From the NCBI GenBank assembly GCA_009379815.1, contig WHSY01000002.1, positions 22,074 through 86,073 of the forward strand: a DNA stretch of 64,000 nt, given 5' to 3'. Below the pieces are notes generated by a model, which saw nothing but the letters and a program-made list of their open reading frames with translations, searched no databases and was not told the DNA's origin. The stretch's first letter is position 1. Every line of letters starts with the position of its first letter. The translations under genes and the position numbers were made by a program. Positions 13,646 through 34,091 of this stretch are shown piece after piece. Source of the stretch: Pseudonocardiaceae bacterium (GTDB lineage: Bacteria; Actinomycetota; Actinomycetes; Mycobacteriales; Pseudonocardiaceae).

Positions 13646-14005
13646 TCACCCGCGTTCGGTCTCGGACCCGGTGGCGGCGGCCAACTCCCTGCTGCGCAGC
13701 GAACATGCGGCCCGCAGCAACACCTCGTCACCGATCCCGGCAGCAGCGGCCCGATCGACCGTGGCGGCGGCGAGTATCTCGGCAGGCTGCGCCTCGACCG
13801 CGAGCAGCTCCTCGGCGGTGGCCGTCCTGCGGCGCAGCTCGCTGAGCACGGCGCTCACCACGGAGATGACCCGCTGGTAGGCGTCGGGATCGGCCATCAA
13901 CTGCGGGTAGAGCCGGTCCTCGGCAGCCCGCCACCGCATCCGCGCCGCCACCAGCCGGTCAGGTCCCGACCCGCTGCCGTCCACGGGGTCACCTCCCACC
14001 GACAT
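13646..14005 (-). CDS. Hypothetical 119-aa protein heading the rSAM-GNAT unit
   Basis: ORF 13646..14005. ATG preceded by GGAGGAGG (complement of 14012-14019) at 6-nt spacing. Ala/Arg/Leu-rich helical sequence; no family recognised. Confidence 0.5.
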   Translation of the reverse strand: MSVGGDPVDGSGSGPDRLVAARMRWRAAEDRLYPQLMADPDAYQRVISVVSAVLSELRRRTATAEELLAVEAQPAEILAAATVDRAAAAGIGDEVLLRAACSLRSRELAAATGSETERG

Positions 14006-14098
14006 CGACGACCTCCTCCGATGAGTTTACTATAGTGTACGTTGCAGGATCATCCTGAATGTGCAGTGTCCGAGGACGGACCACGGGAGACAACGAAC

Positions 14099-17798: not shown

Positions 17799-17823
17799 TT
17801 CCGGGTGTGATGAGGTCGCTGCC

Positions 17824-18204
17824 GTGCTTGCCTCACCTCGCCTTGCGGCCGTCCCGTTCGCCGCGGCTGTCGTGCTCAGCGTTCTGGTGCTGTTCACCCC
17901 GGGCGATCGGGTACCGGCCGGTGCGTGGTGGAGCGACGACGTGGTGCACGCGTCACTGTTCGCCCTGCTGGCGGTCACCGGGGTGCTGCTGCCGTGGCGA
18001 TGGACCCGGCTCGCCGCCGGACTCACCGGCTATGCCGTGCTGTCGGAGGTGGTGCACGCGGTCGCCCCGCTGCAGCGCTCGGGCTCGGTGGCGGATGTGG
18101 CGGCCGACCTCGCCGGGATCGCGCTGGGACTCGCCCTGGCCGCCGCGACGGTCACGGTCGCTCGACCGACGGCTCGCTCCACCGACGGGCGGCGCGCCGA
18201 GTGA
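17824..18204 (+). CDS. Small membrane protein, VanZ-like (tentative)
   Basis: In-frame GTG 17824 within track ORF 17713..18204. Three to four hydrophobic segments with DDVVHASLFALLAVTG and VADVAADLAGIALG. The overlapping ORF 17807..18370 is Arg/Cys/Trp-rich junk. Confidence 0.4.
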   Translation: MLASPRLAAVPFAAAVVLSVLVLFTPGDRVPAGAWWSDDVVHASLFALLAVTGVLLPWRWTRLAAGLTGYAVLSEVVHAVAPLQRSGSVADVAADLAGIALGLALAAATVTVARPTARSTDGRRAE

Positions 18205-18251
18205 ACCGGTCCCCCGCCAGGCCGGTACGGCCGCTCGGTCGCGGCGGACGC

Positions 18252-20084
<1,833 letters not shown>

Positions 20085-20150
20085 AACCGGGCCTCCGCGC
20101 CAGGATCACTCCGGCAGTCAGAACCGGAGAGTTCGCTCGGGAACCCGGTG

Positions 20151-21424
20151 TCACATCGTCGGTCGGACCGTCCCCGGCGTCCACGATGGTCGGTTGTTCA
20201 GTGCGTGCACGTCGCCGTGGGTGATCCGCTGGTAGGTCTCGGCCAGTGCGTCGAGCTCGGCCGGGCTGAGCACATCGTCGATGTGGGAGAAGCCGTTCGG
20301 GGCCCGCAGCTCGACCAGCCGCACGTAGTGGTCGGCGGGGTTGGCCCGGGTGGCGAGCACGAGGTCGTTGGTGGGCTGCAAGCGGGCGTGTTCGTAGGCG
20401 CGGATCCCGGCGGCGGGATCTGGCGAGGTCGCGAGCGAGTGTGCGAGTACGCGTCCGTCGATGATGGCTTGCGTGCCGCCGTTGGAGCCGACCGGGAACA
20501 TCGGGTGCGCGGCGTCACCGAGCAGCGTCACCAGCTCGCCGCCCCAATGGGGTAGCGGCTGGCGGTCGACCATCGGGTAGTCCAGGATCTCGGTGGAGCA
20601 GCGGATCAGCCCGGGTGCGTCGAGCCAGTCAGGGCCCCACCCGTCGAAGTGGGCCAAGACGTCGGCGGTGCGGCCGGCGCGGTTCCAGTCCGGCTCGGCG
20701 CCGCCGGCAGCGGCCTGCGGCACCTCGGCCACCCAGTTCACCAACGACCGGCCGCGGTCGGCCGCCTGTTTCGAGATCGGGTATGTCACGATCCGGGGGC
20801 TGCGTTACTGTCGACGATGACCATGCTGTGTCCGGTCAAGAACGGCTCGGTCTCACACACGCCGCGCCACATCCGGATGCCGGCGTAGTGCAACGGCGCC
20901 TGCTCGGGGTGATAGAGCGCTCGTACCGCGGAGTGCAGCCCGTCAGCGCCGACCAACACGTCTCCCGCGAGGGTGCGCGCACTGCCGGTAGACCGGTCGG
21001 TCACTCCAACCGTGACACCGCCGCGCTGCTGCTCGACGCCCTCGAACTGCGCGCCGAGGCGCACCGCGCACGGGCCGAGCCGCGCACGGACCGTGTCCAG
21101 CAACAGCATCTGCAGCTCGCCGCGGTGGATCGAGTACTGCGGCCACCGATACCCGAGAGCCAGCCCGCGGGGCTGGGACCAGATGCGGTTGCCGTGCCGG
21201 TCAACGTGCACGACCTCGGCGGTCGGGATCGCCAGCTCGCGCAGCGCATCGCCCAGGCCGAGCTCGGTGAGCTCGCGCACGGCGTGCGGCTGCAGGTTGA
21301 TGCCCACACCGAGCGGCCGAGGCTCGCGGACGGCCTCGACGACCACGACGTCGACACCGGCCACGCCCAGGCTCAGCGCCGCGGTCAGGCCGCCGATCCC
21401 CGCGCCGACGACGACAACGCGCAT
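20151..21424 (-). pseudogene. FAD-dependent aromatic-ring monooxygenase split by a frameshift
   Basis: N-half (21424..20786) reads MRVVVVGAGIGGLTAALSL..ADGLHSAVR..GHSMVIVDSNAAPGS*. C-half (20789..20151) reads V/MTYPISK..LLGDAAHPMFPVGSNGGTQAIIDG. The two frames overlap by 4 nt next to a C5 run on the coding strand (G run at 20795-20799). Together they form one typical ~425-aa enzyme. Confidence 0.65.
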
Positions 21425-21557
21425 CACGATTCCCCCACGGATCTGGTCACAGGTTGTCGCCGTCGAGCCCGCCCACAGGTCATCGCAGCCTCCAGCCCGT
21501 CCGCTCCACCGGGCAGGGACGCGTGCGCACGAACCGCTCGCGGCGCGATCCACATGT

Positions 21558-21944
21558 CTACGTGCCACTGCCGTAGGGACGGGTGAGGATCTCGAGGTAG
21601 TGGCCGTTCGGGTCCTCGAAGTAGGTGCCGCGGCCGCCGTCGTTATGGTTGATCTGTCCGGGCTGCTGGGGTCCGGGGCCGGCGTAGTGCGTGATCCCGG
21701 CCTGTTGGATGCGAGCGAGGATGGCGTCGAACTCCTGTTCGGACACCAGGAACGCGTAGTGCTGCGGGGTGATCTGGTCGGTGTCGCTGTCGACAAAGTC
21801 CAGGGCGACAGCGTTGCTGGTCTCGACGGGGATGAACGGGCCGTACTGGGCGCCGACCTGCAGCCCCAGGATCGTGGCCAGGAATTCGGCGGCAGCATGC
21901 TTGTCACGGGCCGCGATAACGGTGTGGTTCAGTTCGACGGACAT
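21558..21944 (-). CDS. VOC/glyoxalase-family protein
   Basis: ATG 21944 (GGAGGGC upstream) within track ORF 21558..22052. MSVELNHTVIAARDKHAAAEFLATILGL...YFEDPNGHYLEI is typical of the VOC fold. Confidence 0.8.
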   Translation of the reverse strand: MSVELNHTVIAARDKHAAAEFLATILGLQVGAQYGPFIPVETSNAVALDFVDSDTDQITPQHYAFLVSEQEFDAILARIQQAGITHYAGPGPQQPGQINHNDGGRGTYFEDPNGHYLEILTRPYGSGT

Positions 21945-21997
21945 GGTATTGCCCTCCGGTTCGGTGGTGTCGGCTCTGATCGTTTCCTGAGCTCGGC

Positions 21998-22576
21998 TCA
22001 GGCCTGGTAGGGCTGCTGCGTTCGGTGGTTGCGTAGGGCGTGTGCCCACCACAGGAGCTGGTCAAGTTGCGATTTGGCGGCCGCGTCCGCGGCGGGGTCG
22101 TGGGGGGTTCGGTCGGGGCCGAACCGCTCGGGGTAGTCGTGGAAGCTCACGACGTTGCGGATGGTGGTGGCGTGGACCTCGGCGAAGACCAGCCGCAGCG
22201 CCTCCACCGCCCGCAGCCCCCCGCCGGTGCCGCCGTAGGAGACGAATCCGACGGGTTTGGCCATCCATTCGTCGAAGAACCAGTCGATCGCGGTCTTCAG
22301 CGAGGCGGGGAAGCTGTGGTTGTACTCCGGGGTGACGACCACGAACGCATCCGCGCGCCCGAGCCGGGGCGCCAAGTCGCGCACCGGGGCCGGGGCCGGC
22401 CCGTCCCCCGGTGAGACGTCGGGCAGGTCGGTCTCGACCAGGTCGACGACATCGACGTCGAGGTCCGCGCGCTGGCGTGCCAGGCTGGCGAACCACTCCG
22501 CCACCGTCGGCCCGAACCGCCCGGTGCGGGTGCTGCCGATGATGACCGCCACCCGGGTCCGCTGCGCGCCCACCAT
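21998..22576 (-). CDS. NADPH-dependent FMN reductase
   Basis: ATG 22576 preceded by GAGGAGG. RVAVIIGSTRTGRFGPTVAEWF and AFVVVTPEYNHSFPASLKTAIDW. An alternative ATG lies at 22597. Confidence 0.8.
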   Translation of the reverse strand: MVGAQRTRVAVIIGSTRTGRFGPTVAEWFASLARQRADLDVDVVDLVETDLPDVSPGDGPAPAPVRDLAPRLGRADAFVVVTPEYNHSFPASLKTAIDWFFDEWMAKPVGFVSYGGTGGGLRAVEALRLVFAEVHATTIRNVVSFHDYPERFGPDRTPHDPAADAAAKSQLDQLLWWAHALRNHRTQQPYQA

Positions 22577-22610
22577 GCCGCTCGCCTCCTCGACCATCGA
22601 GAGCGTCGTA

Positions 22611-22634
22611 TCGTTACGTTCCAAGCTGTAACGA
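22611..22634. promoter_or_regulatory. Inverted repeat TCGTTAC-N10-GTAACGA (candidate TetR operator)
   Basis: Perfect 7-bp arms read directly in the 74-nt divergent spacer between the FMN reductase and TetR genes. Confidence 0.4.
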
Positions 22635-22650
22635 AAAGATAGGTTGTGGC

Positions 22651-23310
22651 ATGGCTTCGCGTCAACCCCGTCACGCCTCACCGCCGGCCGGTGGCCGTCC
22701 CCGAGACCCGCACATCGACACGGCGGTGCTCGACGCGACGCTGGCGGTGCTCGACGAGTCGGGATACACCGCGCTCTCGCTCGAAGACATCGCCCGCCGC
22801 GCCGGCACCACCCGACCCGCGATCTACCGCCGCTGGCGCGGACGCGCGCGCCTGGCACTGGCCGCGCTCGCGGTTCGACTCGACGTCGCCGAGGTCCCCG
22901 ACTCCGGCTGCACCCTCTGCGACCTCGGCGAAGGCCTGGGCGTGTTCATCGCCGCGTTCGGCGCCATCCGACCCGATGTGCTCGGACCGCTGCTGGCCGA
23001 ATGCGCACCCGACCCCGAGCTGCACACCGAGTTCATGGCCACCCTGTTCGACCCCCCACGCGCCGCGGTCGCCCGGATGCTCGACCGCGCCGTCGCCCGC
23101 GGCGACCTGCGCGCCGACATCGACCGAGAGCTCGTCCTGGACATGCTCGGCTCCCTCATCCACTACCGCGCCCTGTTCGGACACGCCCCCACGAGCAACA
23201 CCGAGGTCGAAAGCGCCATCGAAGCCCTGCTGCGCGGCATCGCCACCGACTACCCCGCCCTGGTCGAACACAGCAGGCAGCTCCAAGCCGCCCACGCCCC
23301 CCACCCGTAG
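22651..23310 (+). CDS. TetR-family transcriptional regulator
   Basis: ORF 22651..23310. HTH LSLEDIARRAGTTRPAIYRRWRGRARL. Confidence 0.85.
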   Translation: MASRQPRHASPPAGGRPRDPHIDTAVLDATLAVLDESGYTALSLEDIARRAGTTRPAIYRRWRGRARLALAALAVRLDVAEVPDSGCTLCDLGEGLGVFIAAFGAIRPDVLGPLLAECAPDPELHTEFMATLFDPPRAAVARMLDRAVARGDLRADIDRELVLDMLGSLIHYRALFGHAPTSNTEVESAIEALLRGIATDYPALVEHSRQLQAAHAPHP

Positions 23311-23489
23311 TCGAAGGCTGCGCCCCGCCAAAGCCATGTCCGATGCCCCGACAGCGGCTCGCCGTCGTCGCCGGGTGGGACGCCACCCCACCGTGCACTA
23401 CCTACGCCGTGCAACTGGCCAAGGCCTGGGGCGCAGGTCACCGGCGGCGATGCTCGTATAGTTCGATGGCGGGCGGGGCATCCGCCCCG

Positions 23490-23825
23490 TCAGTGGTCGT
23501 GGCCGGCGGGGCGGGATGCGAGCGCCTCGGCGCGGCGGCCGACGTCCTCGGCACCGACCATCCCCCGCTCGACGACCACCGTCTCCAGCGCCTGCAGCCA
23601 GCACCGGTAGTAGCTCCAACACTGTCCGGGCGGATGGTCGCGCTCCCACTCCGCGATCCGCGCGACGAGATGGTCGCGGAAGTCGTCCCAGCCGAACGGC
23701 CCGGCATCGTGCAGCGTCATGGCCAACCCGAACGCGCGGCTCTCCCACGGCTCGCTGAACACCAGCTCGCCGTTGCTGCGCGGGGGCGCCCCGGGGCCCT
23801 CGATGTCGAGCTGCGGTGCCGTCAC
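23490..23825 (-). CDS. Nitrile hydratase accessory protein (small beta-homologous, P14K-type)
   Basis: ORF 23490..23825; GTG overlaps the alpha stop (GTGA). [18 protein letters not shown] parallels [17 protein letters not shown] of the beta subunit encoded upstream. Confidence 0.7.
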
Positions 23826-24418
23826 GACCCGACCTCGGCCACACCTACCATGGTGTCACGGGTGACCATCGCCGCCAGCTCCTCGACTGGGCGCCCCTCG
23901 GTCCCGGCGGGGCGCTGCGGCAGCACGAGGTAGCGGACCTCGGAACTCGAGTCCCACACCTTGATCTCGACATCGGCGGGCAGCGTCAAGCCCATCTCGG
24001 CCAGCACCGCCCGGGGTTCGCGCACCATCCGTGATCGGTAGGCCGGGTCCTTGTACCAGCTGGGGGGCAACCCCAGCACCGGCCAGGGGTAGCACGAGCA
24101 GAGGGAGCAGACGACGACATGGTGGACGTCGGGCGTGTTCTCCACGACGACGATGTGTTCGCCCTGCGGCCCGCCGAAACCCAGCTCCTTGATCGCGGAC
24201 GTGCCCTCGGCGAGCAGCCGTTCCTTGTATTCCGGGTCGGTCCAGGCCTTCGCGACGACCTGCGCCCCGTTGAGTGGGCCGACGTCGTTCTCGTAGGTGG
24301 CGATGAACTTGTCCATCACCGCGGAATCGACCAGGCCGCGCTCGACGAGCAGCTGCTCCAGCGCCTCCGTCCGCAACGACGGCGGCAGCCGATCCCGGTT
24401 CGGTGCGCTCGTGGTCAT
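23822..24418 (-). CDS. nthA: Nitrile hydratase alpha subunit
   Basis: ATG 24418 overlaps the beta stop (ATGA). Metal-binding claw [29 protein letters not shown]. Confidence 0.9.
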
Positions 24419-25080
24419 TCGTCGGCCTCCAGGTAGCTCTCGAACAGGTCCACATGCAGCCGGAAGGACTCCGCGTCCGGACCCCACAGCTCGTGCGAGT
24501 CGAAGCCGACCGCATACACGTACTGCGGGTTCTCGCCGAGGAAGTGCGCGTTGGTGTCGGGCAGCACCGCCGCGGGCTGGATCAGCTCGATCACGCCGCG
24601 GTGGCCCCGCAGGTAGCCGCACAGCCGAGTGTGGCCCTCGGGGTGGATGTCCTTGGCCCGGACCCGGTCGCCCACCGCGAAGCGCGGGGGCTCCGCCACG
24701 GTCCGCAGCTGGCCCGCCGCCGTGTTCTGGTAGTCGGGTTTGTTCGGCTCCGGGAAGGCCGGCTGGTCCGTCTGCTCACCACGGTTGGCGCGGGCCCGCG
24801 CATTGACCGCCCCGGGGGCCAGGATGGCGCTGTCGGTGAGCATCAGCTCGGCGGCGTTGAGCCAGCGCCCGTAGTACCCGTCCGCCAGGTAGTCGTCGCG
24901 AGGCAGCCGTTCGAGGGCGTGCCGGAAGGCGTCGAGGTTGCGGCCGGACACCCGGCCCATCGACAGCAGGGTCAGCGCGAACGCCCGGCCCTCCCAGGAT
25001 TCCGCGAAGACCGGCTCATCGACGGGCACGGGGGCACGTCCCCAACCCCGGGTTCCGCCCATGTCGGCGATCGTTTCCAC
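24415..25080 (-). CDS. nthB: Nitrile hydratase beta subunit
   Basis: GTG 25080 preceded by GGGAGG, in frame with track ORF 24415..25143. [18 protein letters not shown]...[13 protein letters not shown]...[28 protein letters not shown] is a typical beta layout. Confidence 0.85.
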
Positions 25081-25099
25081 ATGGCCTCCCTGCGGTCGG

Positions 25100-25147
25100 C
25101 CTCGTGAGTGGCGATACGAGTCATGACTCGTATCGCCACTCACGAGG
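25100..25147. repeat. 48-bp perfect palindrome of the CGTGAGTGGCGATRCGAG family
   Basis: CCTCGTGAGTGGCGATACGAGTCA|TGACTCGTATCGCCACTCACGAGG read directly. It fills most of the 75-nt spacer between the 161-aa gene and nthB. Confidence 0.85.
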
Positions 25148-25155
25148 CGAAGCCA

Positions 25156-25641
25156 TCACACCGTCCAGGTCTGCATGATCAGAGCGTTCTCGCGACGGGC
25201 GGTGAGCACGGCATCCAGCACGTCGAGCGGGTTGATCGGCTTGACGCCTTCCATCATGTCGACCTCGCGCATGCCGTAGAGCATCGCGGCCGAGAACCGG
25301 CACGCGTAGACGTGCCCACCCTCGTCCATGAACGTCTGCAGCTGCTTGTTGTACATCAGCGCGCCGGGGAACGCCTCGTCACCGACGGTGGGGAAGCCGC
25401 GGGAGGCCGACGCCATCAACGAACCGGGACCGTAGAGCACCAGGTGGGTGTCGAAACCCTTGCGGTTGATCCGGGTACAGGTGAGCTGATTCACCAGGCC
25501 CACCGACCCCTCGAAGGGCACGGTGTGCATCAGCACGTACGCCTTCTCGCCCGGCTGGGCCTGGATGTCCTCGAAGACCTTGTCCTCGTAGTCGACGATC
25601 GCGTCGCCCTTCTTGACCCTTTCACCCACGATCTGAGCCAT
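25156..25641 (-). CDS. 161-aa protein, probably MSMEG_0572/Sll0783 (Nit1C NitB-like) family
   Basis: ORF 25156..25641 with strong AAGGAGG upstream. The size, and its position directly upstream of the nitrile-converting enzyme and downstream of flavoprotein + small ORF, match the Nit1C layout. The family call needs an HMM check. Confidence 0.55.
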
Positions 25642-25693
25642 TACCGGCCTCCTTGTCCTTCTGTCGTTACCGTTGGGTCTGGTGCTCGTTCCG

Positions 25694-25727
25694 ATCGGTG
25701 ATCAAACTGCATCGGTGATCAAACTGC
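25694..25727. repeat. Perfect tandem duplication of 17 bp (ATCGGTGATCAAACTGC x2)
   Basis: Read directly. The second copy contains the stop codon of the small ORF (25719-25721). Confidence 0.85.
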
Positions 25728-25976
25728 GGGGCCCCGGCGTCGGGGCGGTGGTGCCCAGGTCTTGCGGTGGCTGCCCGGCATGGCCTTGAGCACCCGGTGG
25801 CGCACCGACCACGGCAGTGCGTGGTAGACCGGTGCGAAGACCCGCAGCCAGAAGATCTCCTTGGGGCCTCGGGGGGGCCGTGGCGAGCTTGCCCCGTGCC
25901 GGTGGGCGAGCCGCTCGTGCGCGTCGACCAGCAGGTAGTGCTCGGAGTTGGCGCGCAGCCAGCCGGACCAGGACAT
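25719..25976 (-). CDS. Small basic protein (85 aa), possibly MSMEG_0570 (Nit1C NitG-like) family
   Basis: ATG 25976 lies 2 nt after the flavoprotein stop, within track ORF 25719..26006. MSWSGWLRANSEHYLLVDAHERL...FWLRVFAPVYHALPWSVRHRVLKAMPGSHRKTW. The assignment is by size and position only. Confidence 0.45.
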   Translation of the reverse strand: MSWSGWLRANSEHYLLVDAHERLAHRHGASSPRPPRGPKEIFWLRVFAPVYHALPWSVRHRVLKAMPGSHRKTWAPPPRRRGPAV

Positions 25977-25977
25977 C

Positions 25978-27330
25978 TCAGCCCTTCCCCGCCTTGGCCA
26001 GTTCATTCAGACCGTTCGTGGCGGCGACGACGATCGGCTCGTTGAGCGCCCCGATGGGGGGCGAGTAGACATTCTCCATCGTGGACAGGTCGTGCAGGGT
26101 GAAGCCGAACTTCACCGCCATCGCCAGGAAGTCGGCACGTTCCTTGATGCCCTCACCGCCGCCGACCATCTGCGCGCCGATCAGACGCAGACTGCCGGGC
26201 TCGGCGAGCAGCTTCACCTTGATCTTGTGCACACCCGGGTAGTAGCGCGCCCGGGAGATGCCCTCCGCGGTGGCGAGCACGTACGGGATGCCGAGCGCGG
26301 TGGCGGTGGTCTCGCCGAAGGAGGCCCCACCGATGACCCACTTCCCGGCCGGGGTGCCCCAGGGCACGTAGACCGACTGGTAGGTGCGCGATCCGCCGCC
26401 TGCGTTGGTGCCCGCGACCTTGCCCTGGGCGTAGGCGTGGCTGCCGGTCAGGCCCTGCAGCGGGACCTGGGTGAAGCCGTGCGGGATCTCGGTGCAGTCG
26501 CCGGCAGCGAACACGCCATCGGCCGAGGTGGCCATCCGCTCGTCCACCACGATCCCGCCGGTGGTCCCGATGCGGAGGCCGGCCGCCGAGGCCAGCGCGT
26601 TGTTGGGCGTCTTGTGCGTGCACACCACCACGACATCGGCGGGGAACTCCCCGGCCGAGGTCTGTACGCCCCGGACATGACCGCCGTCACCGAGGAACGC
26701 CTCGAGGGTGGTGTTGAAGTGCAGCTTGACCCCCATCTCGCGCCAGGACTCCTCGACGGGCGCCATGATGTCGGGGTCGGCCATCTCCCCCAGCGCCCAG
26801 GGATTCGGGTCGACGAGATGGGTCTCGATGCCCCGGTGGGCCAGCGCGGTCACCATCTCCAGACCGAGCGGGGAGGCGTCGACCACCACGGCGACCTTGG
26901 TCCGGTCGAGGACCTTGTCCCACTCCATCGCCTCGCGGATGTTCTTGACGTAGTACAGCCCCTCGAGGTCGCCCCCCGGCACGCCGGGGTCGGCGTAGTC
27001 GAAGCCCGTGCCCAGCACGAGCCGGTCGTAGGAGACCTCGCCCTCGGCTGCCGCGGTGACGGTCTTGCGGGCGATGTTGAGCGCGGTGACCTCGGTGTTG
27101 TAGTGCACGTCGATGCCGGCGTCGACGTAGGCCTGCTTACCGGCGAGGAACAACCGCTGGAAGTCCTCGATCTCGCCACCATGGACGTACGGGATGCCGC
27201 AGGGGCTGTAGGCGATGTCCTCGTACTCGGTGTAGACGGTCACCTCGGCGTCCGGATCCGCCGCCTTGACACCGCCCGCGGCCCCCAGACCCGCGGCGCC
27301 ACCTCCCACGATCACGGTCCTGCGTGGCAC
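25978..27330 (-). CDS. FAD/NAD(P)-dependent pyridine-nucleotide-disulfide oxidoreductase (single-Cys CoA-disulfide-reductase/NADH-oxidase-like), in the Nit1C flavoprotein position
   Basis: Track ORF 25978..27375. Start moved to GTG 27330 (GAGGAG 5 nt upstream). VIVGGGAAGLGAAG dinucleotide fold and redox Cys context YSPCGIPYVHGG. Confidence 0.8.
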   Translation of the reverse strand: MPRRTVIVGGGAAGLGAAGGVKAADPDAEVTVYTEYEDIAYSPCGIPYVHGGEIEDFQRLFLAGKQAYVDAGIDVHYNTEVTALNIARKTVTAAAEGEVSYDRLVLGTGFDYADPGVPGGDLEGLYYVKNIREAMEWDKVLDRTKVAVVVDASPLGLEMVTALAHRGIETHLVDPNPWALGEMADPDIMAPVEESWREMGVKLHFNTTLEAFLGDGGHVRGVQTSAGEFPADVVVVCTHKTPNNALASAAGLRIGTTGGIVVDERMATSADGVFAAGDCTEIPHGFTQVPLQGLTGSHAYAQGKVAGTNAGGGSRTYQSVYVPWGTPAGKWVIGGASFGETTATALGIPYVLATAEGISRARYYPGVHKIKVKLLAEPGSLRLIGAQMVGGGEGIKERADFLAMAVKFGFTLHDLSTMENVYSPPIGALNEPIVVAATNGLNELAKAGKG

Positions 27331-27442
27331 ACGAACTCCTCTTCCACGACCTAGGATGGTGCCGTCCTTCGGCAAAGACGTTCACCATATGCAATACCGA
27401 TCTACTATACTAATCGCGATCACCGTGTCAAGGAGCGTCAGC

Positions 27443-28060
27443 ATGGCCAGGTCGGCGACCAGCGCGCACGAGCCCGGGCGCGACGGCGGGCTCGCCCGCG
27501 ACTGGGAACCGATCGTCGGATCGATCGGGCCGAAGGTGCGCGAGCTGCGCCAGCAGCTCGGGCTGTCGCTACAGCAGCTCGCCCAGCAGTCCGAGGTTTC
27601 GGCAGCGGCCATCCACAAGGTCGAGCGGGGTGACATGGTCCCCACCATCACCACGCTGCTCAAGCTCGCGGCCGCACTCGACCGGCCGATCGGGCACTTC
27701 GTGGAGGACACCACCCCCATAGGTCCGGTGGCTTCCCACGTCCCGGCGGCGGGCCGTACCGCGCTGCGGTCCGCGGCCGACGGGGTGGACCTGGCCGGTT
27801 TCTCGGGGTCTGCGGACAGGTTTCGCACCGCCGGTGCGGTCGCCACCATCGCGCCCGGCGCGCAGGGCACCGGCGCGCAGCGCCCCGGCGAGGACCTGAT
27901 GCTCGTGCTCAGCGGCACGCTGGCCGTCGAGATCGCGGGCGAGCACTACACGCTGCGCAAGGGCGACGCGCTGCACTACCCGACCGATCGGCCGTATTGC
28001 TGGTCGAACCCCGGGCGCTCCGAGACCAGGGCGGTGTGGATCTCGCTGCCTGGCAGCTGA
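27443..28060 (+). CDS. XRE-family HTH regulator with C-terminal cupin domain
   Basis: ATG 27443 (AGGAGCG upstream) in frame with track ORF 27266..28060. LRQQLGLSLQQLAQQSEVSAAAIHKVERGD, then a cupin region GEHYTLRKGDALHYPTDRPYCWSN. Confidence 0.8.
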   Translation: MARSATSAHEPGRDGGLARDWEPIVGSIGPKVRELRQQLGLSLQQLAQQSEVSAAAIHKVERGDMVPTITTLLKLAAALDRPIGHFVEDTTPIGPVASHVPAAGRTALRSAADGVDLAGFSGSADRFRTAGAVATIAPGAQGTGAQRPGEDLMLVLSGTLAVEIAGEHYTLRKGDALHYPTDRPYCWSNPGRSETRAVWISLPGS

Positions 28061-28797
28061 GCCGCTGCCGGCTCGAGCCCGAGACCCGGCTCCAGCCCGA
28101 GACCCGACTCCAGCCCGAATCGCAGCGCGCGGCCGGAGCTGGCCCCCACCCGGTCCAGCCTCGCGAGCGCCTGCGCGGCCCGCACGCGATCGCCGCCGGC
28201 CTGTGCGGCCAGCCAGCTGTGCGCCGGCTCGATGCACTGCCCCCTCGCGGCCCAGGCCAAGAACGCCGCGGCGACATCGGTCGTCACGACCGAGCCGGCG
28301 ACCGCGGCCAGCCCGGGTTCGGCTGCCGCGCCGTGCAGCGCTCGGGCTACCAGCAGCACGCCGGCCAGCACGTCGTCCCCGGAGGGTGTCAGGCCCGGCC
28401 CGCGCCCGCCGATCCTGCCTGCGAGCGCCGCGACACCATCGGACCGCAGCACCGGGCCGAGCCGATCGCCGGTCCCCGGCGGGTGCCGTCGCCGGTATCG
28501 CGCGAGCTCCTCGGCGCCCGGCAGCTGCCCGGTCCAGGTCGGCGCATCGAGGGGCACCGACCACTGCCGACCGTGCAACCCGGTCGGGTCGATGTCCACC
28601 GCGTCGCCCGGTGCCAGCTGCGGCAGCGTCGCCACCCGCAGGTGCAGCGGTCCGGACGGCGCGCGGCCGTCGGTCAGCGCCAGCAGGCCGGCCGGAAAGC
28701 GCAGGTAGGCCGCCGCCCGGTACACCGCGACCACCCGACCGGCCCCGCGGCGCCCCGCGACCCGGCGAGCACCCACACCGACGTCCAGCGTGGTCAT
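27976..28797 (-). CDS. DUF2877-like protein (YlbF/AllH-like)
   Basis: ATG 28797 overlaps the DUF1116 stop (ATGA), in frame with track ORF 27976..29316. GRGPGLTPSGDDVLAGVLL motif; ~273 aa as in YlbF. Its last 85 nt overlap the XRE-cupin gene on the opposite strand. Confidence 0.65.
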   Translation of the reverse strand: MTTLDVGVGARRVAGRRGAGRVVAVYRAAAYLRFPAGLLALTDGRAPSGPLHLRVATLPQLAPGDAVDIDPTGLHGRQWSVPLDAPTWTGQLPGAEELARYRRRHPPGTGDRLGPVLRSDGVAALAGRIGGRGPGLTPSGDDVLAGVLLVARALHGAAAEPGLAAVAGSVVTTDVAAAFLAWAARGQCIEPAHSWLAAQAGGDRVRAAQALARLDRVGASSGRALRFGLESGLGLEPGLGLEPAAAQLPGSEIHTALVSERPGFDQQYGRSVG

Positions 28798-30200
28798 CTC
28801 GCGCGCGCGAGCTCCAGCAGCGCGTCGACGAAGCAGGCCAGCGGCGCGGTCGCCACGCCGGCACCGACCTGTCCCGCTCCGGATCTCGCGTGCAGGATCC
28901 CGGTGTTCACCGTCGGTGTCACCCCCAGCTCGACGACCTGACGGACGTCGACCCCGAGCGGCGTCCCGGAAAAGCCCAGTGGTGGCAGCGTGAAGCGGCT
29001 GCTGCGGCTCGCGCAGATCTGCCGGAACCCCTCGGTCGCCGCGGCGCCGTCGGCCATCGTGCCGCCGAGGAACGCCGCCACTGCCGGGGAGCCCCCGGCG
29101 GCCGGCCCGCCGAGCCCGACGAGCTCGAGTACCGCGCTGTCGCCGATGTCGGGTGCCGCGTCGTCGGGCCCGTAGCCGGAGTAGTACAACGCATCGGCCA
29201 CCGGTGGCGCGTCGGTGACATACCAGGCGTCGGACCCCGGCAGCCGGATGCCGAACGTCGTCCCGTTGCGACTCATCGTGGTCACGATGCTGGAGCCGGG
29301 CACCTGCCCGGCCCATGCGGTCAACGAACGCGCCGCCCCCATCGCCAGGGTGAGGAAGAACAGGTGGTTGCCGGACAGGAACCGGGCCAGCTCCGTCCGG
29401 CTCGGGGCGGGCAGCTCCGCGAGGTGGGGCAGCCAGTTACGGATCAGCAGGTTGGTGGTGGCCTGGGTGCGCATGTGCAGGTCGTCACCCATGGCGACAC
29501 CCTGCGCGGCGAGTCCGAGGATGTCGAGCGAGCCGGCCTGGTCGACGACCTGCCGCAGCGCCGGGCCCGCCACGTCGCGCAGGAAGCGCAACCGCTCGAT
29601 CGCCGCGTCGGTGTCGCGTCCGAACCACGGCACCTCGCCGGGACCCTGGCTGATCGGGGCGAACGCGCGAGTCCCGCCGTCGGGGCAGTCGACGACCCAC
29701 ACCGGCGCCGACGGGCCGATCGCGCTGGCCATCGGCACCACGGTGTCGTGGTGGTTGGCCGGCGCGAGCCCCACCGTGCCGCTCTCGAGCAACCGGTGGG
29801 CCTGCGCCGTGTCCGCCGCCCAACCCTCCGCGACGACCGCCGCCCCCATCGACCGTCGAAGCGGGTCGCACACCTGTGGCCACTCGATCGCGGGTCCGCA
29901 GTGCAGCAGGGTGTTGCCGTCCATCCCCGGCACCACCTCGTCGGCCCGCGCCACCCCGACCAGCCACGGCACGCCCTGGTCGAGGCGGCGCAGCACCTCG
30001 GCGTTGGCCGCGTCCACCTCATCGGCGGCGGTGCCGTAGAGCCGTGCCAGCGCCGCCACGAGCGAGGTGTCACCCCCCGCCGGGATCCGCCAGTCGACCT
30101 GTTGCACCGGGCTGCCCTGGGCGGCCACCGCATCGGCGAACATCGGCAACCCGATGTTGATGACGTCGACCCGCTCGGGCAACGCCAGCTGACCGGGCAT
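28794..30200 (-). CDS. DUF1116-domain protein (YlbE/AllG-like)
   Basis: ATG 30200 shares one nt with the upstream stop (TGATG). MPGQLALPERVDVINIGLPMFADAVAAQGSPVQQVDWRIPAGGD is a typical DUF1116 N-terminus; 468 aa. Confidence 0.75.
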   Translation of the reverse strand: MPGQLALPERVDVINIGLPMFADAVAAQGSPVQQVDWRIPAGGDTSLVAALARLYGTAADEVDAANAEVLRRLDQGVPWLVGVARADEVVPGMDGNTLLHCGPAIEWPQVCDPLRRSMGAAVVAEGWAADTAQAHRLLESGTVGLAPANHHDTVVPMASAIGPSAPVWVVDCPDGGTRAFAPISQGPGEVPWFGRDTDAAIERLRFLRDVAGPALRQVVDQAGSLDILGLAAQGVAMGDDLHMRTQATTNLLIRNWLPHLAELPAPSRTELARFLSGNHLFFLTLAMGAARSLTAWAGQVPGSSIVTTMSRNGTTFGIRLPGSDAWYVTDAPPVADALYYSGYGPDDAAPDIGDSAVLELVGLGGPAAGGSPAVAAFLGGTMADGAAATEGFRQICASRSSRFTLPPLGFSGTPLGVDVRQVVELGVTPTVNTGILHARSGAGQVGAGVATAPLACFVDALLELARAR

Positions 30201-31705
30201 CACGAACCACTCCCATTCGTGTCGTTGACGACGGTCCGGGCGGTGTCGAGCAGTTCCTGTTCGGCCCGGTCGAAGCCCGCCGTGCGCTGTCGAGCCCTGA
30301 CTGCCAGGTCGGCCAGCGTCGTACGCAGCGAGGTGACCATCGTGGCCAGCGCCTCGGGCGCTGCGCCACCCTGCGCGCGGCGTGACAGCACGATCTGCCA
30401 GGGGTCGAGCACCTCCGACAGGTCGGCCCCGGCCAGCCCCCAGGACCGCCCGGTGTGCTCCAGTGCCGCGCGGTCGATCATCTCGCCGGTGATCCCCACA
30501 CCGGGGACCCCCTCGCGGCTGGCCGCCCGAACCGTGTTGCCGACGACCAGGTAGGCGGTGCGGTAGTCCACCCCGCAACGCTGCACGAGATCCTCCGCCA
30601 GGTCCGTGGCCTGCGCGTAGCCACCGCGCAGCTCCTCGGCCATCCGCTCGGGATTGACCCGCACGGTGCGCACCACACCGGTGATCAGCCGCGTGATCCG
30701 CAACGTCAGGTCCAGCGCGCGCGGGACCTCACCGTAGGCGAAGATCAGGTTGTCACTGCGCGCCGACGGGCTCTTGGTGACGGCCAGGAATCCCGTGAGT
30801 CGTCCGATCAGGACTCCGGACGCACCGCGCACGATGGACAGCGAGTACGGGTTGCGCTTCTGCGGCATCAGCACGCTGGCCCGCGTGTAGGCGTCGGCCA
30901 GATCGACGAAGTCGAACTCGCTGCTGGAGAAGATCTCCAGGTCCTCGCCGAGCTTGCTGAAGTTCGACAGCAGGCTCGCCGCGGTGGCCAGCAGATGGAT
31001 GAGCCCGTCGACCTGCCACATGGCGTCCCGGGTGTGCTCGATGACCCCCTCGAAGCCCAGCATGTTCGCGACGAAGCTGCGGTCATCGAGCAGCCGGGTG
31101 CCGTTCACGCAGCCTGCCCCGCCCGGGCTGCAGTCCACCCAGTCCAGCTCGTCGAGCAGCCGCCGCACGTCGCGGACCGTCGAGTACACGAACGACAGCA
31201 GGTAGTGCCCGAAGGTGGACGGCTGCGCCTGCTGCAGGTAGGTCTGATCGGGCAGCAGCGTCTCGGCGTGCTCGAGGGCCCGCTCGGCGGTCACCTCCGC
31301 GAAGGTGACGGCTTCGTCCGCCAGCTCCGCGAGCTGTCGGCGCAGGTGCAGCCGCAGCGCGATCCGGACCGCCTCCCGGCGCGGCCGCCCGGCGTGCAGC
31401 CAGCCTGCGAGGTCACCGATGCGGGCGACGAAGTAGTGCTCCCGGGAGTTGTAGGGCTCGCCGAGGGCCGGGTCGTACGGGAAGTCCTCGGCCGCCGTCT
31501 GCTGCACATCGAGCAGCAGGCCCAGCAGCCGGCGCTGCGCGTCGGCGGGCACGACACCGCGCCGGCCGAGGTCGAGCACGTGGGTGATGTCGGCCAGGTT
31601 CAGGCCGTTGTGCAGGAACTCCGCGTCGGCGTTCTCCAGGCTGAAGCCGGAATCCACCAGTTCCTGCGCGGGGCCGTCCTGCGGCGGGCCCTCCTGACGG
31701 GTCAT
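30200..31705 (-). CDS. Argininosuccinate-lyase-like enzyme (aspartase/fumarase superfamily)
   Basis: ATG 31705 overlaps the upstream stop (ATGA). Signature region TRASVLMPQKRNPYSL and QTYLQQAQPSTFGHY; 501 aa. Confidence 0.8.
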   Translation of the reverse strand: MTRQEGPPQDGPAQELVDSGFSLENADAEFLHNGLNLADITHVLDLGRRGVVPADAQRRLLGLLLDVQQTAAEDFPYDPALGEPYNSREHYFVARIGDLAGWLHAGRPRREAVRIALRLHLRRQLAELADEAVTFAEVTAERALEHAETLLPDQTYLQQAQPSTFGHYLLSFVYSTVRDVRRLLDELDWVDCSPGGAGCVNGTRLLDDRSFVANMLGFEGVIEHTRDAMWQVDGLIHLLATAASLLSNFSKLGEDLEIFSSSEFDFVDLADAYTRASVLMPQKRNPYSLSIVRGASGVLIGRLTGFLAVTKSPSARSDNLIFAYGEVPRALDLTLRITRLITGVVRTVRVNPERMAEELRGGYAQATDLAEDLVQRCGVDYRTAYLVVGNTVRAASREGVPGVGITGEMIDRAALEHTGRSWGLAGADLSEVLDPWQIVLSRRAQGGAAPEALATMVTSLRTTLADLAVRARQRTAGFDRAEQELLDTARTVVNDTNGSGS

Positions 31706-32709
31706 GCGGCTCCTCTCGTGGCACTGTCGAGCGCGGCGACGGCGGGGATCAACCCGCCGGTGTGCCAGTAGACGACCGGCCGCGACTCCCGGCGAGGCAG
31801 CCGGTCGGCGGTCGCCGCGAACGCCTTGGCGCCGTAGGTGTCGTCGAGCAGCAGCCCCTCGGTGTGCAGCGCCAGCCTGCCGCGGTCGCGGTCGGCCTCG
31901 GCGGCGACACCGAAGCCGGGCCCGCGACCGTCGACGATCTCCAGCAGGTCGAGCCGGGGCGCTGCCGCGCCCAACGCGCTCGCGCACTGCTGCGCCAGTT
32001 CCGCGATGCGCGACGAGATCTCCGCCGGGGGCCTGCTGACCGAGATGCCGAGCACCGGCCATTCCTGTCCGGTGACGGCGAGCCCCGCGAGCAGCCCGGC
32101 GCAGCTGCCGCCGGACCCGACGGCCAGCGCCACGAACGCCGGTGGCCCGTCGAGCTGGGCGACGAGCTCCGCGGCCGCCACCGCGAACCCGGCGGCGCCC
32201 ACTGCGGTGGACCCGCCACGAGGGACCGGATACGGGCGACGACCCTGGGACGCGAGCGCGGCGGCACGGTCCTCGACGGCGGCGTCGACGGCGTCGCGCC
32301 GGTCATCGCCGGTGCGGTGCAGCCGTGCCCCTGCCGCCGCGGCGAGCGCGATGTTGGGAGCGGCCGTGATGTCGCCCCACACCACGAGCTCGCAGTCGAG
32401 CCCGGCGGCGCGGGCGGCCAGCGCCGCGGCCGGGCAGAAGTTCGAGCCGGGGCCGCCGCCGGTGACCAGGACGTCGCAGCCTTCGGCCAGTGCGGCGCCG
32501 AGCAGGTACTCCAGCGGCCGGGTCTTGTTGCCCGCTGCGGCGAAACCCGCGAGGTCATCGCGCTTGAGCAGCAGCGGCCCGCAGCGCAGCGCGGCCTCCA
32601 GCCGGTGCGCGCGCACCAGCGGGGTGGGCAGCACGGCCAGCGGGAAGCGCGGCCACGGGACCTGTGGCAACGGGACCCGTGGCCGTGCAGGGGGTGGCGG
32701 CACAGTCAT
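31702..32709 (-). CDS. PLP-dependent ACC-deaminase / D-cysteine-desulfhydrase-family enzyme
   Basis: ATG 32709 overlaps the upstream stop (ATGA). PLP-lysine motif LLKRDDLAGFAAAGNKTRPLEYLL and a C-terminal LDDTYGAKAF. Confidence 0.8.
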   Translation of the reverse strand: MTVPPPPARPRVPLPQVPWPRFPLAVLPTPLVRAHRLEAALRCGPLLLKRDDLAGFAAAGNKTRPLEYLLGAALAEGCDVLVTGGGPGSNFCPAAALAARAAGLDCELVVWGDITAAPNIALAAAAGARLHRTGDDRRDAVDAAVEDRAAALASQGRRPYPVPRGGSTAVGAAGFAVAAAELVAQLDGPPAFVALAVGSGGSCAGLLAGLAVTGQEWPVLGISVSRPPAEISSRIAELAQQCASALGAAAPRLDLLEIVDGRGPGFGVAAEADRDRGRLALHTEGLLLDDTYGAKAFAATADRLPRRESRPVVYWHTGGLIPAVAALDSATRGAA

Positions 32710-34091
32710 GTCCACCTGCGCTGCGATGTCCACTCGGCGGCCTCGGCATCCCGGGCGGCATGCGCCCTGGCCAGCACCGTGTCGACCATGGTGGCGGCGG
32801 TGTCGATCGCGGGCCGCTGCATCCAGGAGCGCACGTCCGCGGCGCTGGCCACCCCGCGCTCGACCACCCCGCGCTCGACCAGCCCGCGACCCGGGTCGCC
32901 GCCGTCCTCGCGTAGCACCTCGTGCAGCAGCTGCTGGGCGCGATGCTTGCCGATCCGCGACGACAGCCCGGCCAGCACCCGCTCCGAGCTCAGCGCCTCG
33001 CCGTAGCGGTCGAGGTTGGCCGCCATCGCGCCGGCATCGACCTCGAGACCGGTGACCAGCTGTCGACCCAGCGCCAGCGCCGCCCCGGTCAGCAGGCATA
33101 CCTCGGGCAGTGCCGCCCACTCGGCCTTCCAGGCACGGCCGTCGCGCTCGCCGGCGGCGACCATCCCCTCGGTGAGCACCCCGGCCGAGGAGCGGGCCAG
33201 CCGGGCCAGCGTGTCGAGGTGCTCGCTGCCCTCGGGGTTGCGCTTGTGCGGCATGGTGATGCTGCTGACCGCGCCGGGTGGGGCGGCTTCCGCGAGCTCG
33301 CCGATCTCGGGCCGGGCGAGCTCGTAGACCTCGGCGCCGATCCGCGCGAGCGTGCCGGCGACCATCGCGAGCAGCTGGCCGAAGTCGGCGATGCGGTCCC
33401 GGCAGGTCAGCCACGAGATGCCGGGATCGGCCAGCCCCACCTCGGCGCAGAACATCCTGCGCAGCTCGGTGGCTGCAGGGCCGAAGAACCCCAGCGCGCC
33501 GACCGCGCCCCCGAGCTGGCCGACCAGCCAGCGGTCCCGGCCGTCGCGCAGCCGCTCGACGTGCCTGCGCACCTCGTCGGCCCAGGACGCAGCCTTGAGC
33601 CCGAAGGTGACGGGGGCACCCGGCTGGCCGTGGGTGCGGCCCGCCATGGCCGTGTCGCGGTGGGCGGCGGCCAGCTCGAGCAGTGACGCCTCGAGCGCGC
33701 GCAGGTCACGCCACACCACGGTGCCGACCTCGCGCATCACCACCCCGAACCAGGTGTCGGTGACGTCCTGGACCGTGACACCGAAGTAGACGTGCTCGCG
33801 GGCGTGCTCGGGCAGCACCCGCATCAGGCCACGGATGAGGCCCAGCGTCGAGTGCGAGGTCAGCCGGGTCTGCTCGGCCACGTAGTCCATGTCGAGCGCG
33901 TCGGCACGGGCAGCGGCGATCGCGTCGGCCGAGGCCGCCGGGATGATGCCCAGCCGGGCCTGCGCCCGAGCCAGCCCGGCCAGGATGTCGCACCAGGACT
34001 GCAGCCGGGCCCGCTCGTCGAACACCGCCGCGAGTTCCGGCGTGGCCCACAGGTGGGCGTACATGACCGAGTCGGTCAGGCGGGTGCCCAT
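32706..34091 (-). CDS. Adenylosuccinate-lyase / carboxymuconate-cycloisomerase-like enzyme (aspartase/fumarase superfamily)
   Basis: ATG 34091, in frame with track ORF 32706..34724. Signature VSSITMPHKRNPEGSE and MAGRTHGQPGAPVTFG; 461 aa. Confidence 0.8.
   Translation of the reverse strand: MGTRLTDSVMYAHLWATPELAAVFDERARLQSWCDILAGLARAQARLGIIPAASADAIAAARADALDMDYVAEQTRLTSHSTLGLIRGLMRVLPEHAREHVYFGVTVQDVTDTWFGVVMREVGTVVWRDLRALEASLLELAAAHRDTAMAGRTHGQPGAPVTFGLKAASWADEVRRHVERLRDGRDRWLVGQLGGAVGALGFFGPAATELRRMFCAEVGLADPGISWLTCRDRIADFGQLLAMVAGTLARIGAEVYELARPEIGELAEAAPPGAVSSITMPHKRNPEGSEHLDTLARLARSSAGVLTEGMVAAGERDGRAWKAEWAALPEVCLLTGAALALGRQLVTGLEVDAGAMAANLDRYGEALSSERVLAGLSSRIGKHRAQQLLHEVLREDGGDPGRGLVERGVVERGVASAADVRSWMQRPAIDTAATMVDTVLARAHAARDAEAAEWTSQRRWT

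Follow-up and report, generated by a model that had tools for sequence, protein, structure and literature searches.

A 64-kb stretch of a Pseudonocardiaceae genome (contig WHSY01000002.1 of assembly GCA_009379815.1; G+C content, 72%), referred to here as the window, carries the genes of a nitrile hydratase (NHase) at an unexpected place. The NHase beta gene, nthB, lies directly 3' of a homologue of MSMEG_0572 (Sll0783, NitB), within a set of genes that is related to the Nit1C cluster and lacks its nitrilase. The NHase cassette is appended to the 0572 operon. Judged from the sequences, chances are about even that it fills the slot of the canonical nitrilase there, is transcribed by read-through, and hydrates a pathway nitrile to a carboxamide. 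Nitrilase, NHase, and a third protein, of the Amidohydro_2 family, are probably positional alternatives for one hydrolytic step and probably functional alternatives as well. Because two nitrile-specific families occur in this slot, a nitrile intermediate is favored. We found no account in the literature of an NHase with Nit1C genes, or of an NHase with phosphosulfolactate/coenzyme M (CoM) genes, in such an arrangement, and an NHase-bearing actinobacterial cluster with Nit1C-type genes is apparently undescribed. All coordinates are given in window numbering.

Nit1C clusters are widespread, show induction by nitrogen starvation or by cyanide, and have been linked to cyanide assimilation; their physiological substrate and product are still an open question (PMC7815647, PMC11049912, PMC6039565). 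Peroxide resistance has also been reported for them (PMC6039565, PMC11049912).

The NHase cassette and its operon

Genes were called from an open reading frame (ORF) listing, with a codon-usage gene caller, and from the public calls on an identical Logan contig (L001). All three sources agreed on a minus-strand unit running from 27330 to 23490 in the order flavoprotein, 85-aa ORF, 161-aa ORF, nthB, nthA, and accessory gene, with all six ORFs where the original prediction had placed them (Table 1). The junctions were also read as predicted. The flavoprotein stop and the start of the 85-aa ORF form TGAgATG, with 2 nt from stop to start, and the overlaps are ATGA between nthB and nthA and GTGA between nthA and the accessory gene.

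The product of nthB carries both the N- and the C-terminal NHase beta domains, its gene adjoins that of the alpha subunit, and the protein is 100% identical to an NCBI protein from a Pseudonocardiaceae metagenome-assembled genome (MAG). The accessory protein is of the small, beta-homologous activator type and not a large GTPase-type activator. Among sequences of solved structures in the PDB, the best relatives of NthA were Co-type NHases (approximately 265 to 276 bits). NthB, whose best solved relatives are of the same type, scored only 106 to 133 bits and is far more divergent than the alpha subunit. We also considered the window enzyme as an orthologue of the Pseudonocardia thermophila NHase; this was unsupported for the beta subunit, which scored 106 bits, compared to 64 to 75% identity among the sister loci described below. 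The metal-binding motif of NthA reads C-S-L-C-S-C-Y. Serine at the second position is typical of Fe-type NHases and threonine is usual in Co-type enzymes, while a tyrosine following the motif is typical of the Co-type. NthA stayed under the cutoff of the thiocyanate hydrolase gamma model (TIGR03887, 200.6 bits versus a cutoff of 291). Taken together, nthB, nthA, and the accessory gene are an ordinary NHase cassette, in all likelihood of the cobalt type, for which nitrile-to-amide activity is predicted.

Nit1C genes in the window and in sister loci

The canonical Nit1C arrangement was inspected on two annotated plasmids, pCMU01 of Methylorubrum extorquens CM4 and an IncFIB plasmid of Klebsiella pneumoniae. 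On both, the order was 0572, Nit6803-family nitrilase, radical-SAM (rSAM) protein 0568, GNAT protein 0567, sll0787 AIR-synthase-like protein, (glycosyltransferase 0565), 0570, and 0569, in agreement with the literature (PMC11049912, PMC7815647). The premise that a Sll0783/NitB-like gene is followed directly by a nitrilase gene in canonical clusters was thereby seen on both plasmids (PMC11049912).

Relatives of the 161-aa protein were collected by a pattern scan in which each GTDB species was represented by one genome; 307 were found. The best 80 (84 to 93% identity) were taken together with 10 kb on either side and are referred to as sister loci. They belong to Pseudonocardiaceae, Actinomycetospora, Nocardioidaceae, Jiangellaceae, Propionibacteriaceae, and others. 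Gene content was established by tblastn plus clustering of the called genes, and the canonical Nit1C proteins were used as tblastn queries against the whole window and all 80 loci. The 0572 queries matched every sequence with approximately 60% identity. Matches in the window and in 29 to 56 of the loci were obtained with the rSAM, GNAT, AIR-synthase-like, and glycosyltransferase queries. The rSAM and GNAT genes of the window belong to another operon, at a distance of 11 to 13 kb from the 0572 gene. Neither the Methylorubrum nor the Klebsiella nitrilase of the Nit6803 family matched anything at E ≤ 1e-3 in the 64-kb window or in the 80 sister loci (±10 kb); a Nit1C-type nitrilase beside other parts of the cluster, which would have spoken against a replacement, was therefore not detected by tblastn. 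Both MSMEG_0570 query proteins were also without a match in this sample, and MSMEG_0569 gave no real match.

NHase and Amidohydro_2 alternate in the cluster

The triad of flavoprotein, 85-aa, and 161-aa genes was present in essentially all 80 sister loci, usually with a divergent gene for an XRE-cupin regulator. Beta, alpha, and accessory genes of NHase were found 3' of the 161-aa gene in 32 of the 80, as well as in a metagenomic contig (L086). Given this recurrence of the triad and of the NHase genes behind it, the gene order is not due to chance. Instead of NHase, 41 of the 80 loci encoded a conserved Amidohydro_2 protein of about 287 aa. No locus had both (33 with NHase, including the window, versus 41), and the seven with neither are short, truncated, or rearranged contigs that are cut where the gene would lie. 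The Amidohydro_2 protein gave a weak to modest match to Pfam PF04909 only and matched no NCBIfam model and no PDB sequence. Its gene is located either beyond the XRE gene or, in what we call type-C loci, directly after the 161-aa gene.

A core-gene tree was built from the flavoprotein and the 161-aa protein by neighbor joining with midpoint rooting. Its deepest branch is a MAG locus, L077:3133-8226, in which the genes for flavoprotein, 85-aa protein, 161-aa protein, a 218-aa ORF, Amidohydro_2, rSAM, and GNAT form one co-directional operon; no other locus is as colinear with the canonical order of 0572, nitrilase, rSAM, and GNAT. Within one clade of the tree, loci with NHase and loci with Amidohydro_2 were interleaved, which implies several switches between the two states. 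The original prediction had described a replacement of nitrilase by NHase. Its notion of a common slot and the absence of the nitrilase have held, but a simple swap does not describe a situation that is three-way and optional, with Amidohydro_2 in 41 of the 80 sister loci. Rearrangements were also noticed at two of the loci: an IS66-like transposase fragment is found next to the 161-aa gene in L046 (L046:1-2081), and the 161-aa gene is inverted relative to the flavoprotein/85-aa pair in L046 and L047.

The hairpin between the 161-aa gene and nthB

The 75-nt spacer between the 161-aa gene and nthB (25081 to 25155) contains a perfect 48-nt palindrome, which had been noted before and which we verified. 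Its RNA was computed to fold with -57.8 kcal/mol (z = -8.8), and none of 200 shuffled sequences folded as well. The ribosome-binding site (RBS) of nthB (GGGAGG) and its GTG start follow within about 25 nt. Across all 32 NHase sister loci, the corresponding spacer measured 63 to 96 nt and was mostly taken up by a hairpin, with an uninterrupted stem of at least 10 bp in 25 loci, a long bulged helix in 6, and a weak structure in 1. Since the spacer sequences differ among lineages, it is the structure and not the sequence that is conserved. Such a short spacer, filled by the hairpin, leaves no room for an nthB promoter. A single promoter-like site, TTGACA-16-TATAGT, was detected in 23000 to 28200, within the 112-bp divergent region that the flavoprotein gene has in common with the XRE-cupin regulator gene. 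No intrinsic terminator with a U-tract was found in the same interval. The short GC hairpin directly after the accessory gene likely marks the end of the unit, because the next gene (TetR) converges on it.

Hairpins were also present 3' of the 161-aa gene in many, not all, of 22 NHase-less loci examined, in which the next gene converges. Stand-alone NHase cassettes, in turn, have longer upstream regions without a hairpin. The possibility that the hairpin is part of a mobile NHase cassette was discarded on these two observations. In the best reading, the hairpin marks where the flavoprotein operon used to end, and the NHase genes would have been added behind it without a promoter of their own. 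Lacking one, they would have to rely on read-through for expression, which would probably be attenuated.

Origin of the cassette

We checked four close relatives of NthB (68 to 74% identity) that lie on long contigs. One is the in-cluster cassette of L086. The other three, found in a Streptosporangium sp. and on two metagenomic contigs, stand alone as beta-alpha-accessory cassettes with unrelated neighbors. In a tree of the alpha and beta subunits, the stand-alone cassettes nested among the in-cluster NHases of Pseudonocardiales, and the in-cluster NHases of a second layout (L033, L043, and L071) formed a deep, separate branch. Two deeply divergent NHase lineages thus share precisely one junction. 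As far as Pseudonocardiales are concerned, the NHase tree and the core-gene tree have their major groupings in common, as judged by eye. The cassette appears to have co-diverged with the cluster there, which would mean long retention.

These observations bear on a reading that we consider unlikely, namely, that the NHase is a passenger. A mobile cassette for general nitrile catabolism would have landed behind the operon terminator in an ancestor of Pseudonocardiales, and once more elsewhere, and would have no role in the chemistry of the cluster. The nesting of stand-alone cassettes from unrelated contexts would be expected in that case, as would the terminator-like hairpin before nthB and its counterparts behind the operon in many of the examined loci that lack NHase; moreover, over half of the sister clusters do without NHase, and NthA is close to broad-specificity Co-type enzymes. 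However, a passenger would hardly be found at the same exact junction in 32 species-level loci and L086, from two divergent NHase lineages and with no promoter-sized upstream region left. Perfect complementarity with Amidohydro_2 over several switches of state is likewise not expected of a neutral passenger, and the apparent co-divergence of cassette and cluster in Pseudonocardiales also argues against it.

The flavoprotein and the 85-aa and 161-aa proteins

The best NCBIfam matches of the flavoprotein were CoA-disulfide reductase (CoADR) and NADH oxidase, and TIGR04046 was not among the 25 best of the 58 families matched. Its redox motif is SPCGIPY, with a single cysteine. By these matches we assign the flavoprotein to the FAD enzymes of the CoADR/NADH oxidase/CoA-persulfide reductase group. 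Identity with MSMEG_0569 was rejected on the same grounds, as only fragments of the Rossmann motif could be aligned to an MSMEG_0569 protein.

For the 85-aa protein, neither Pfam nor NCBIfam gave a match, and a profile search of PDB sequences was also empty. Its gene is always directly 3' of the gene for the CoADR-like flavoprotein, and the family is conserved yet unannotated. The proteins are basic and rich in tryptophan, proline, and arginine, with invariant W6, R8, P49, Y51, P55-W56, and M66-PGSH70 (MPGSH motif). A divergent MSMEG_0570 was considered and rejected, since there was no hidden Markov model (HMM) match and no BLASTP alignment and hhalign gave a probability of 1%. A 15-nt direct repeat, AGTTTGATCACCGAT, occurs in two tandem copies at 25694 to 25725 on the minus strand, spanning the stop of the 85-aa ORF upstream of the 161-aa RBS.

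The 161-aa protein is 80 to 94% identical to hundreds of proteins across Actinomycetota and has no Pfam match by sequence. Its AlphaFold model (pLDDT 80) matched 3mc3, 3pnx, 2qs7, and 2hy5 with a probability of 1.0 and TM scores of 0.55 to 0.79, and a DsrE/DsrF-like fold is predicted accordingly. Cys114 is invariant. The 0572 proteins of the window cluster type form a tight subgroup of at least 78% mutual identity. The best plasmid-borne 0572 homologues are approximately 54 to 65% identical to the 161-aa protein. We looked for the window cluster type on plasmids and did not find it: no 0572 homologue exceeded 65% identity, and the two records inspected were canonical Nit1C. MSMEG_0572-family genes as such are common on clinical plasmids (516 PLSDB records, including 374 from Klebsiella, 30 from Escherichia coli, and 16 from Acinetobacter), with full Nit1C content seen in the two that were inspected.

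Family membership of the two small ORFs, on which the original prediction depended, was thus settled in opposite ways: the 161-aa protein is a member of the 0572 family (TIGR04044, 223 bits versus a cutoff of 110), but the 85-aa protein showed no kinship to MSMEG_0570 by HMM, BLASTP, or hhalign. The parallel that had been drawn with MSMEG_0569-0570-0572 stands for 0572 and fails for two of the three genes, because the flavoprotein is CoADR-like and not a relative of 0569, and the 85-aa protein is no relative of 0570. This makes it highly improbable that a nitrilase was exchanged one for one for NHase in an otherwise orthologous module of flavoprotein (0569), small protein (0570), and 0572, as first proposed. 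Such an exchange would agree with the identity of the 0572 protein, with the canonical adjacency of 0572 and nitrilase, and with the failure to detect a nitrilase in the window or the 80 sister loci. But besides the two unrelated proteins, the canonical 0570 and 0569 genes are located at the far end of the operon and not upstream of 0572, and the nearest relatives hold Amidohydro_2 in the slot, not a nitrilase.

The larger cluster

Upstream of the unit and on the same strand, an operon encodes, in this order, ComA, XcbA, XcbD-, XcbE-, and XcbC-like proteins, AllG, and AllH (Table 1). Sister loci have this conserved operon, too, next to that of the flavoprotein, 85-aa, and 161-aa genes. The bacterial CoM pathway comprises five enzymes, encoded by xcbABCDE in Xanthobacter autotrophicus Py2 (PMC9457059). 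Among the genes called and annotated in the window, no alkene or epoxide genes were seen. The amide- and carbamoyl-handling genes that had been suspected nearby were indeed found in the form of carbamate kinase, AllF/FdrA, AllG, and AllH, and they are conserved in the NHase and non-NHase versions of the cluster alike. Where sister loci share the window layout, the block of carbamate kinase, AllF, and glycosyltransferase genes mostly runs straight up to the convergent NHase accessory gene; in a few, one or two short ORFs lie between them. The window has a specific 5.6-kb insertion between the accessory and glycosyltransferase genes (17800 to 23400), which contains a VanZ-like ORF and genes for a 600-aa DUF222 protein, a glyoxalase/FosA-like protein, an FMN reductase, and the TetR protein.

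Table 1. Features of the cluster, in the order of their position in the window (bits are HMM scores)
Feature	Position	Strand	Evidence or remark
SARP/AfsR-type regulator, 1063 aa	8719-11910	+	Abuts the GNAT gene; conserved at that end of NHase-type clusters
MSMEG_0567 GNAT	11911-12387	-	TIGR04045, 99 bits (cutoff 68)
MSMEG_0568 rSAM	12384-13559	-	TIGR04043, 401 bits (cutoff 304)
Conserved 119-aa protein	13646-14005	-	Next to the rSAM gene
Carbamate kinase-like	14066-15076	+	One block with AllF-like and glycosyltransferase genes
FdrA/AllF-like	15073-16617	+	Same block as the carbamate kinase-like gene
MSMEG_0565-family glycosyltransferase	16614-17798	+	TIGR04047, 369 bits (cutoff 260)
Short GC hairpin	23470-23489	-	Directly after the accessory-gene stop; sequence inspection
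Accessory gene (small beta-like activator, 111 aa)	23490-23825	-	TIGR03889, 75 bits (cutoff 46); NHase_beta_N domain
nthA, metal motif VCSLCSCY	23822-24418	-	TIGR01323, 300 bits (cutoff 250); PF02979, 292 bits
nthB, GTG start, N terminus METIADMGG	24415-25080	-	TIGR03888, 175 bits (cutoff 152); PF21006 and PF02211
Perfect 48-nt palindrome (RNA hairpin) between the 161-aa gene and nthB	25100-25147	-	No U-tract
161-aa ORF, MSMEG_0572/Sll0783 (NitB) family	25156-25641	-	TIGR04044, 223 bits (cutoff 110)
85-aa ORF	25719-25976	-	41 to 71% identity by tblastn in nearly all sister loci
Flavoprotein	25978-27330	-	Pyr_redox_2, 160 bits; best NCBIfam match CoADR, 252 bits, under its cutoff
Promoter-like site TTGACA-16-TATAGT	27431-27404	-	Agrees with the consensus at 11 of 12 places; precedes the flavoprotein gene
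XRE-HTH + cupin regulator (PuuR-like)	27443-28060	+	Divergent; conserved beside the flavoprotein gene
AllH-like	27976-28797	-	Oxamate-carbamoyltransferase-type subunit; end of the Xcb-like operon
AllG-like	28794-30203	-	Oxamate-carbamoyltransferase-type subunit
XcbC-like	30200-31705	-	420 bits (cutoff 575)
XcbE-like PLP enzyme	31702-32733	-	237 bits (cutoff 450)
XcbD-like	32706-34091	-	570 bits (cutoff 600)
XcbA family	34076-34975	-	339 bits (cutoff 150); sole Xcb/ComA model passing
Phosphosulfolactate synthase ComA (XcbB)	34972-35775	-	226 bits (cutoff 280)
sll0787-type AIR-synthase-like (NitF counterpart)	35893-36843	+	TIGR04049, 243 bits, under its cutoff (321); 38% identity to the Methylorubrum protein
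OsmC-like	37311-37715	+	Adjoins the 161-aa or flavoprotein gene in other layouts

Several further features of the region were recorded. The position of the SARP/AfsR regulator hints at regulation in the style of secondary metabolism. Two minus-strand ORFs, 20151 to 20789 and 20786 to 21427, correspond to the C-terminal half (profile positions 215 to 416) and the N-terminal half (3 to 209) of the FAD monooxygenase PRK07538; the pair reflects either a sequencing error or a gene that is split or frameshifted. Genes for LarC, LarB, and LarE, of nickel-pincer cofactor biosynthesis, lie at 37674 to 40398 on the minus strand, at the cluster edge past the OsmC-like gene, and none of the genes scanned in the window was recognized as one for a LarA-type enzyme. 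The rest of the window, as far as its genes were scanned, is housekeeping (Paa genes, amine oxidase, ArgS, CopA, CofGH, and others).

Taken together, the neighbors hint at sulfur-linked and carbamoyl chemistry: they comprise the CoM-type pathway, the CoADR-like flavoprotein, the DsrE-fold protein with its invariant cysteine, the OsmC-like protein, and AllF/G/H with carbamate kinase. Such a set is in keeping with what has been reported for Nit1C, namely, links to nitrogen starvation, to cyanide, and to resistance against peroxide (PMC6039565, PMC11049912). Any concrete scheme is speculation. One scheme that we regard as possible but doubtful places an undescribed Actinomycetota pathway here in which Nit1C-type enzymes act on or with a CoM-like sulfonate thiol. 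A cyano group (a nitrile or an S-cyano/thiocyanate ester) would be handled beside NitB by one of three unrelated enzymes, depending on the lineage: a nitrilase in canonical Nit1C, and an NHase or a new Amidohydro_2 subfamily in the window cluster type, and the (thio)carboxamide derived from NHase would go to AllF/G/H and carbamate kinase.

Another proposal, which seems to us quite unlikely, retains the slot and changes its chemistry. The actinobacterial cluster would have diverged very far from Nit1C; NHase and Amidohydro_2 would alternate without either of them replacing the nitrilase reaction, and they would act on a sulfur-linked cyano or carbamoyl group, such as that of an organic thiocyanate or of an S-carbamoylated CoM-like thiol. 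The product would pass to AllF/G/H and carbamate kinase and yield carbamoyl phosphate, ATP, and ammonia. A slot surrounded by the full CoM-type pathway, the CoADR-like flavoprotein, the DsrE-fold protein with its invariant cysteine, and the OsmC-like protein is what this proposal would lead one to expect, and AllF/G/H and carbamate kinase are kept whether or not NHase is there. In addition, thiocyanate hydrolase is an NHase homologue whose model gives NthA 200 bits, and canonical Nit1C is tied to cyanide assimilation and nitrogen starvation (PMC7815647, PMC11049912, PMC6039565). Nevertheless, the proposal is drawn purely from gene content and leaves the rSAM, GNAT, AIR-synthase-like, and glycosyltransferase genes unexplained. 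NthA passes the NHase cutoff and not that of thiocyanate hydrolase, and with four of the five Xcb/ComA homologues under curated cutoffs, the thiol product is itself uncertain.

Proposed role of the NHase and points that weigh against it

According to the model that we prefer, a conserved operon for a CoADR-like flavoprotein, the 85-aa protein, and the DsrE-like 0572 protein has gained an NHase cassette at its 3' end. Transcripts starting at the flavoprotein promoter would read through the conserved hairpin into the NHase genes, and the hairpin may lower or shape the expression of these genes. The enzyme would then turn a pathway nitrile into a carboxamide and not into an acid and ammonia, and the amide would remain available to the carbamoyl- and amide-handling enzymes of the cluster.

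Several points weigh against this model. The hairpin before nthB looks like an operon terminator in NHase-less loci, and the NHase could be poorly or separately expressed. Stand-alone cassettes nest among the in-cluster ones, so that the cassette is mobile and does not form a specialized lineage. Amidohydro_2, the commonest occupant of the slot among close relatives, argues for caution; its family is not known to convert nitriles, and a nitrile might therefore have no part in the shared step. An NHase by itself frees no ammonia, and no amidase was recognized in the cluster. Finally, the view taken here extends over 10 kb on either side of each sister locus and 64 kb in the window, and a nitrilase or Amidohydro_2 gene elsewhere in these genomes is possible.

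Significance

These loci amount to a natural experiment in which one gene position holds a nitrilase, an NHase, or an unstudied amidohydrolase across clusters that have homologues of NitB, rSAM, GNAT, AIR-synthase-like protein, and glycosyltransferase in common. That two nitrile-specific families occupy one slot is, on comparative grounds, the best hint to date of a nitrile in Nit1C, and the Amidohydro_2 protein may represent a new enzyme for the same step. The linkage to a CoM-type pathway, a CoADR-like flavoprotein, and AllF/G/H with carbamate kinase suggests where the metabolite should be sought. If the reading with a CoM-like thiol and a cyano group were true, it would name the type of intermediate in Nit1C and tie these clusters to thiol and sulfur chemistry and to the peroxide-resistance and cyanide-assimilation phenotypes. 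Both versions of the cluster are carried by culturable Pseudonocardia, Actinomycetospora, and Nocardioides, which makes Nit1C chemistry testable there. Carriers of the NHase version include Pseudonocardia parietis, Pseudonocardia endophytica, and Actinomycetospora spp. (L058, L064, and L066 to L076), and Nocardioides guangzhouensis (L008) has the Amidohydro_2 version. The findings are relevant to work on Nit1C, on nitrile enzymes, and on low-molecular-weight thiols.

Comparison with known systems

The NHases of Rhodococcus rhodochrous J1 (nhhBAG) and P. thermophila are cobalt-type enzymes encoded in the order beta, alpha, activator. The window cassette resembles them in gene order, in its small beta-like activator, and in the C-x-L-C-S-C-Y site. 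It differs from these operons, which usually have threonine in the motif, by its serine (CSLCSC); unlike them, it has no upstream regulatory region of its own and is appended to another operon. A biosynthetic NHase is known from the toyocamycin pathway, in which ToyJKL, an enzyme of three subunits with a known nucleoside substrate, converts the pathway nitrile to an amide. Both are NHases within an actinomycete gene cluster of the SARP type, but the window cassette is interchangeable with an Amidohydro_2 enzyme.

In E. coli, AllFGH is the oxamate carbamoyltransferase and acts with the carbamate kinase AllK. The window has FdrA/AllF-, AllG-, and AllH-like proteins (PF06545 and PF11392) together with a carbamate kinase; in contrast to E. 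coli, their genes are split over two operons and are not accompanied by allantoin genes. Homologues of all five xcbABCDE products of X. autotrophicus Py2 (PMC9457059) are encoded in one window operon, which, unlike that of Py2, runs on into AllG and AllH and has four of five models under their curated cutoffs.

The closest comparison is with Nit1C itself (nitBCDEFGH; sll0783-0787; MSMEG_0565-0572, "gpr"), of which the window cluster has the NitB/0572, rSAM 0568, GNAT 0567, and glycosyltransferase 0565 homologues, along with a probable sll0787-type counterpart that scores under its cutoff. Canonical Nit1C is one co-directional operon with 0570 and 0569 at its far end, whereas the window homologues are distributed over at least four differently oriented units between 11.9 and 36.8 kb. 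The window cluster additionally contains the CoM-type pathway, AllF/G/H with carbamate kinase, the CoADR-like flavoprotein, the 85-aa protein, the OsmC-like protein, and the SARP regulator. What the two have in common at the position studied here is that an enzyme hydrolyzing a C-N bond is encoded directly after the 0572 gene.

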